Source: Escherichia coli (GTDB taxonomy: Bacteria; Pseudomonadota; Gammaproteobacteria; Enterobacterales; Enterobacteriaceae). From it: 64,000 nt of DNA. The translations under genes were made by a program, and so were the position numbers. Below, piece after piece: positions 41,344 through 41,603 of the stretch (its first letter is position 1; every line of letters begins with the position of its first letter). Below the pieces are notes generated by a model. That model saw only the letters and a list, made by a program, of their open reading frames with translations. It had not been told where the DNA came from and did no database searches. Location of the stretch: assembly GCF_048403405.1 (NCBI RefSeq), contig NZ_CP183129.1. The stretch is one strand, 5' to 3'.

Positions 41344-41375
41344 TTTGTAAACCGTCCGGCACTCAATCGCCAAAA

Positions 41376-41603
41376 AGAAAAAAGCCAGCAGATAATCACT
41401 GCTGGCGTGGCGATTAACACCAATACTCAGTCACACATGATGTCCGCAAATCAGTAGCCAGAATGACTCCCCTCCCACTGCATCAGTTCTTCAAGCATGG
41501 TTAATCGTTGTGGGACGCTTAACCAACGCAACCAGCACAACTTCGCTGTCGCGGTAAAATAGTGCTGATAAAACTGACGCATGGGGCACCTCCTTGCTTC
41601 ATC
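41376..41603 (-). ncRNA. sgrS: SgrS small RNA (glucose-phosphate stress); 3' terminator hairpin lies about 40 bp from the leuD stop
   Basis: Minus strand begins gatgaagcaaggaggtgccccatgcgtcag, contains gtgtgactgagtattggtg core and a terminal hairpin plus U-tract; divergent from sgrR. Confidence 0.85.
41451..41582 (-). CDS. sgrT: SgrT small protein (43 aa) encoded within sgrS
   Basis: MRQFYQHYFTATAKLCWLRWLSVPQRLTMLEELMQWEGSHSGY at the C-terminal end of track ORF 41451..41750. Confidence 0.85.
   Translation of the reverse strand: MRQFYQHYFTATAKLCWLRWLSVPQRLTMLEELMQWEGSHSGY

Follow-up and report, generated by a model that had tools for sequence, protein, structure and literature searches.

In Escherichia coli K-12, transcription from an SgrR-dependent promoter reaches setA by reading through the sgrS terminator, and the read-through RNAs are not functional sRNAs. 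SetA aids recovery under some stress conditions. The synteny tbpA-sgrR-sgrS-(setA)-leuD has been compared in K-12, CFT073 and O157:H7 Sakai (Horler & Vanderpool 2009, NAR 37:5465). The same study reported 88% identity between sgrS of K-12 and sgrS of CFT073/O157 and found the K-12 stem-loop hiding the sgrT ribosome-binding site in only few strains. In González-Alba 2019, setA appears among the genes specific to the A/B1 sublineage, which is read there as an acquisition. RefSeq annotations show leuD next to sgrT in thousands of genomes. The absence of setA is already known and has already been described; a literature search for setA, sgrS and phylogroup together gave no match. What can be added here is modest: outgroup evidence from across the family that the state without setA is a deletion, an identical junction across Escherichia species, and a haplotype breakpoint inside sgrT.

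We analyzed a stretch of 64 kb of an E. coli chromosome, hereafter called the window, which is collinear with K-12 from about 120,195 to 55,887 in reverse orientation. Its leuD-sgrS junction is 100% identical to that of strain 4621, a human blood isolate. The features of the locus are collected in Table 1. leuD is the last gene of leuLABCD and converges with sgrS. The original prediction had placed the leuD stop at 41341..41343 with sgrS about 30 bp away: the ORF and Rfam coordinates confirm the TAG stop at 41341-41343 and give a gap of 33 nt. The sgrS gene matches Rfam RF00534 over model positions 1-232 of 232 with 229.8 bits (gathering score 37, E = 2.7e-65). Together with this full-length match we found the divergently transcribed sgrR (sgrR start at 41671 on the plus strand, sgrS 5' end at 41603 on the minus strand), the base-pairing sequence and a poly-U Rho-independent terminator, as is characteristic of SgrS. 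The sgrT ORF in the 5' part of sgrS would make the transcript a dual-function RNA.

Table 1. Features of the leuD-sgrS-sgrR locus in the window.
Feature	Position	Strand	Basis
leuD	40738..41343	+	ORF; C-terminus aligned with K-12 LeuD; RefSeq annotation of identical strain 4621; identity profile
Spacer, 33 nt, leuD stop to sgrS 3' end	41344..41376	.	BLAST breakpoints against K-12; same junction in other Escherichia
sgrS, full length, 227 nt	41377..41603	-	Rfam RF00534
sgrS intrinsic terminator	41372..41406	-	Terminator scan (minus strand only), Rfam structure line, fold
SgrS base-pairing region CAUCAUGUGUGACUGAGUAUUGGUGU	41417..41442	-	sgrS allele alignment; identical to K-12
sgrT, 43 codons, intact	41451..41582	-	Sequence; allele alignment; annotated sgrT in identical strain 4621
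Haplotype breakpoint in sgrS, nt 131/132	41472..41473	-	Identity profile, sgrS allele alignment
sgrR, SgrS activator, 552 aa	41671..43329	+	ORF; 94% nucleotide identity to K-12 sgrR; annotated SgrR in strain 4621

Two other regions of the window differ from K-12. Between sgrR and the TPP riboswitch that precedes thiB, about 1 kb (43324-44344) is absent from K-12; the CDS 43570..44139 on the minus strand encodes a 189-aa protein annotated in RefSeq, for the identical strain 4621, as the T3SS effector EspY2. Positions 60155-61708, between rluA and djlA, do not align to K-12, which has the yabP/yabQ locus there. This region contains two overlapping minus-strand ORFs of 176 aa and 240 aa resembling orfA/orfB of the IS3 family.

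The original prediction stated that setA is missing without a remnant ORF and proposed an alignment to K-12. Both were borne out. Searches of the whole 64 kb window with K-12 SetA by tblastn (best E = 2.1) and with K-12 setA by word-7 blastn (best E = 0.76) returned chance-level matches only, and the alignment with K-12 breaks at window positions 41337/41378, where K-12 has about 1261 bp, comprising setA and both intergenic spacers, and the window 40 bp. The K-12 type of operon, with setA right after the sgrS terminator, is thus not found in the window. For the rest of the source genome, absence of setA is deduced from the complementary counts of junction and setA in E. coli given below. When the 33-nt spacer was compared with the setA-leuD spacers of K-12 and of outgroups, we found no convincing homology by which the deletion breakpoints could be placed. 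A vague likeness between CCGTCCGGCAC and CATCCGGCAAC, the arm of the REP-like hairpin of Citrobacter, was the only match and was discarded as unconvincing. REP-like palindromes between leuD and setA were seen at several loci.

We determined how the two states of the locus are distributed within the species, as the original prediction had suggested, using 5426 complete E. coli genomes, 5399 of which gave any match to the junction query. The leuD-sgrS junction runs uninterrupted in 2159 of the 5426 genomes, and K-12 setA is present in 3241, in 3228 of them at an identity of at least 99%. The two classes add up to 5400 against 5399 matched genomes, a near-perfect partition; presence and absence of setA form a polymorphism of two states with hardly anything in between. 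Linkage of the sgrS allele to the setA state is complete: where the junction is contiguous, its identity to the window is 95% or higher, and where setA is present, the sgrS part is about 91% identical. At an identity of at least 99% the window-type junction occurs in only 201 genomes. O157:H7 and O55:H7 have the contiguous junction and CFT073 lacks setA, while setA is found in K-12, REL606 and O111:H- 11128 (phylogroups A and B1 as published). The locus without setA is the ordinary state in about 40% of complete E. coli genomes. The framing of the absence as unusual consequently does not hold: the gene is normally missing in this share of the species and in other Escherichia species, and the restriction to A/B1 had already been published.

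In order to place the two states in a wider context we scanned for SgrR with one genome per species, which gave 80 loci, 76 of them from outside Escherichia. In all 76 non-Escherichia loci setA lies directly downstream of sgrS, and in most of them leuD follows just beyond. The genera with this order are, among others, Salmonella, Citrobacter, Enterobacter, Leclercia, Lelliottia, Klebsiella, Raoultella, Kluyvera, Trabulsiella, Yokenella, Atlantibacter and Buttiauxella. Within the 80 loci setA is absent only from E. albertii, E. whittamii and Escherichia sp. E1V33, and all three have the same junction sequence as the window; the locus of Escherichia sp. MOD1-EC7003 includes setA. None of these loci bears the name of E. 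fergusonii, E. marmotae or E. ruysiae, and E1V33 and MOD1-EC7003 are listed without a named species. K-12 setA is 77-80% identical to setA of Salmonella and Citrobacter, the same level as for sgrR, which argues that K-12 setA is not a recent import from either genus. Judged from these loci, sgrS-setA is the ancestral arrangement of the Enterobacteriaceae and the state of the window a loss relative to the ancestor. Since the gene stands at the same position in 76 of 76 non-Escherichia loci, the view that A/B1 acquired setA has to be qualified: setA of A/B1 is retained or regained, not new.

The window differs from K-12 at this locus by more than the missing gene. Most of the region is 96-98% identical to K-12 and the 500 bp spanning the junction 88.9%, and the last 300 nt of leuD are unusually divergent, with about 91% identity to K-12 and a LeuD C-terminus of ...EEKQPEFMR compared to ...EAKQPAFMN. 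Over the whole of sgrS the identity is 89.8%, which is distributed unevenly: the 5' half is 99.1% identical to K-12 and 92.9% to E. albertii, whereas the 3' half is 78.4% identical to K-12 and 96.5% to E. albertii. The switch between the two haplotypes is abrupt and lies at sgrS nt 131/132 (window 41473/41472). By its junction sequence and its sgrS 3' allele the window belongs to the Escherichia haplotype without setA. Because the breakpoint falls inside sgrT, the C-terminus of SgrT differs from K-12 in its last eight residues (...MQWEGSHSGY in the window, ...MQWDDRNSES in K-12). The spacer and the terminator differ from K-12 as well, while the base-pairing sequence CAUCAUGUGUGACUGAGUAUUGGUGU is unchanged. 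Of the two functions that had been predicted to be kept, SgrS base-pairing is well supported by the allele alignment, the region being identical to K-12; for SgrT the prediction is right in that all 43 codons are intact, with the reservation of the altered tail. Just upstream of the sgrT start, at sgrS nt 10-14 (window 41590-41594), the window reads GGAGG and K-12 GGGGG, and SgrT is probably better translated in the window than in K-12.

How did the locus come to lack setA? We found no support for an assembly collapse or a laboratory deletion specific to the strain, and the same junction is present in 2159 complete genomes, in strain 4621 with 100% identity and in three other Escherichia species, which refutes both. 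As setA follows sgrS in 76 of 76 non-Escherichia loci the state without setA is best read as a deletion, and as three other Escherichia species have the identical junction, as one deletion. The window very probably represents a natural haplotype of the leuD-sgrS-sgrR locus without setA that goes back to this single old deletion of about 1.26 kb. It would have taken setA and both spacers in an ancestor within Escherichia, and its junction would now be common to E. albertii, E. whittamii, Escherichia sp. E1V33 and about 40% of E. coli. The further course is evenly balanced in our estimate. The ancestor of E. coli may already have lacked setA, with A/B1 having regained setA together with the sgrS 3' half and the leuD 3' end by homologous recombination from an Escherichia-like donor carrying setA; in that case the window shows the original state of E. 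coli and not a loss specific to a lineage. Such a regain agrees with the absence of setA from E. albertii, E. whittamii, E1V33, O157:H7, O55:H7 and CFT073, of which all that were aligned at the level of single bases have one junction in common, with the sharp edges of the exchange (99% and 78% identity between window and K-12 in the two halves of sgrS), with an identity of 98.5-98.7% between the K-12 block and MOD1-EC7003 against 92-95.5% in the flanks, with the very low diversity of setA (at least 99% identity in 3228 of 3241 genomes) and with the gain in the A/B1 sublineage inferred by González-Alba 2019. The same data, however, fit a long coexistence of two haplotypes that were moved between lineages by recombination. 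A broader form of this idea, which we consider improbable, holds that the two states are anciently diverged haplotypes crossing the species borders of Escherichia, that the setA state is always inherited together with the SgrT C-terminus, the SgrS 3' module (Hfq-binding, terminator) and the end of leuD, and that in the haplotype without setA the unterminated leu operon runs antisense through sgrS and ties SgrS output to leucine supply. In MOD1-EC7003 the block of setA and the sgrS 3' part is 98.5-98.7% identical to K-12, and leuC, sgrR and thiB only 92-94%; this suggests a recent exchange of the block with setA between Escherichia lineages.

The terminator scan showed a single terminator-like site between leuD and the body of sgrS, the hairpin gccagcagataatcactgctggc at 41384..41406, to which the 33-nt deletion junction adjoins. 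Position and strand are exactly as predicted, with the U-tract on the minus-strand side. The hairpin consists of an 8-bp G+C-rich stem (41384-41391 with 41399-41406) and a 7-nt loop and is followed on the minus strand by UUUUUUCUUUUU, U6-C-U5 (41383 down to 41372); going by these sequence features it is a canonical intrinsic terminator for sgrS. The prediction that leuD and sgrS share this terminator could be upheld for sgrS only. Beyond the stem the plus strand reads GUGGCGAUUAACACC without a U-tract, so that the U-tracts on both strands which mark a bidirectional intrinsic terminator are not present, and the scan detected no plus-strand terminator between leuD and sgrR. A true bidirectional terminator of sgrS and the leu operon nevertheless has some points in its favor: the hairpin is the only stable one between the convergent units and forms equally well in plus-strand RNA; an outer repeat (AAUCGCC 41365-41371, GGCGAUU 41409-41415) extends the plus-strand fold to -23.9 kcal/mol (z = -3.8); and the K-12 hairpin just after leuD (CCCGGUCAAAUGACCGGG followed by CUUUCC) has no counterpart in the window, so nothing else would be available. 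Given the missing U-tract and an outer repeat that is mismatched in E. albertii (GACGATT) and not visibly maintained, we consider termination of the leu operon at this hairpin doubtful. Most likely, transcripts of the leu operon would either continue beyond the hairpin, antisense to sgrS, until they are ended by Rho, or be trimmed back to the hairpin. The plus strand after the hairpin is C-rich, and its C/G ratios of 1.3-1.9 are compatible with Rho loading; they are only suggestive and no evidence for it.

The sgrS terminator hairpin, together with its U-tract, is flanked by the 7-bp inverted repeat AATCGCC/GGCGATT, which would form only in read-through or leu-strand RNA. It was rejected as a conserved structure because of the mismatch in E. 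albertii and the lack of covariation. Compared with other genera, the terminator of the window matches Citrobacter at 45/51 positions, and its tail GCUUUUUUC(G/U)UUU is the form found in most other genera examined; the K-12-type terminator resembles that of Salmonella (37/39 positions). We also dismissed the notion that the terminator of the setA-less locus is a new adaptation, firmer against read-through, as most genera examined have the GCUUUUUUC(G/U)UUU tail ahead of setA. At the loci of C. youngae, K. pneumoniae and others the usual sgrS terminator is missing right after the base-pairing region, which for Klebsiella has already been reported. In CFT073 an IS200C element (positions 3935-4660 of the retrieved locus) is inserted exactly within the U-tract of SgrS, between GCTGGCTTTTTT and CTTTTTGGCGATT; SgrS of CFT073 would then end in U6 and IS sequence, and both termination and Hfq binding may be affected.

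Since sgrR and the intergenic region are conserved, we expect that SgrR activates a monocistronic sgrS in the window. Transcription would stop at the retained terminator of ancestral type (8-bp stem, U6CU5) and yield an SgrS of 227 nt, the 3' end being deduced from sequence. The locus would thereby provide SgrS with a base-pairing region identical to K-12 and a variant SgrT, and no SetA. Any read-through of the terminator would give RNA antisense to leuD and not a setA mRNA. The original prediction that the SetA arm of the glucose-phosphate stress response is removed appears reasonable, as SgrR, SgrS and SgrT are intact and setA is absent, yet this is the usual condition in much of the species. 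Nearly all work on glucose-phosphate stress has been done in K-12, and about 40% of the sequenced E. coli, including O157:H7 and CFT073, are without the SetA arm; in addition, their SgrT tail and SgrS terminator are not those of K-12. Findings on terminator read-through of sgrS, framed as a choice between sRNA and setA mRNA, are not directly transferable to such strains.

In comparison to the described systems, the locus of CFT073/O157:H7 has the same sgrS allele class, no setA between sgrS and leuD, and a matching spacer and terminator. It differs from the window by the IS200C insertion in the SgrS U-tract of CFT073 and by the mutated sgrT start codon of O157:H7 (Horler & Vanderpool 2009), neither of which is found in the window, and by the lineage-specific leuD 3' end of the window, in line with the mere 201 genomes that reach 99% identity at the junction. 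With the K-12 sgrS-setA operon (Sun & Vanderpool 2011; Morita et al. 2015, 2022) the window shares the divergent sgrR, the sgrS promoter region, the sgrT start, the base-pairing region and a poly-U Rho-independent terminator. Here the differences are greater: setA is missing, so that terminator read-through gives no SetA mRNA, the terminator is GCCAGCAG-N7-CUGCUGGC followed by U6CU5 compared to CCAGCAG-N7-CUGCUGG followed by U8 in K-12, the SgrT C-terminus is changed, and GGAGG replaces the GGGGG of K-12 in the stem occluding the sgrT ribosome-binding site. Bidirectional terminators between convergent genes resemble the hairpin in that a single G+C-rich hairpin lies between convergent units; the window differs from them by a U-tract on one strand only.
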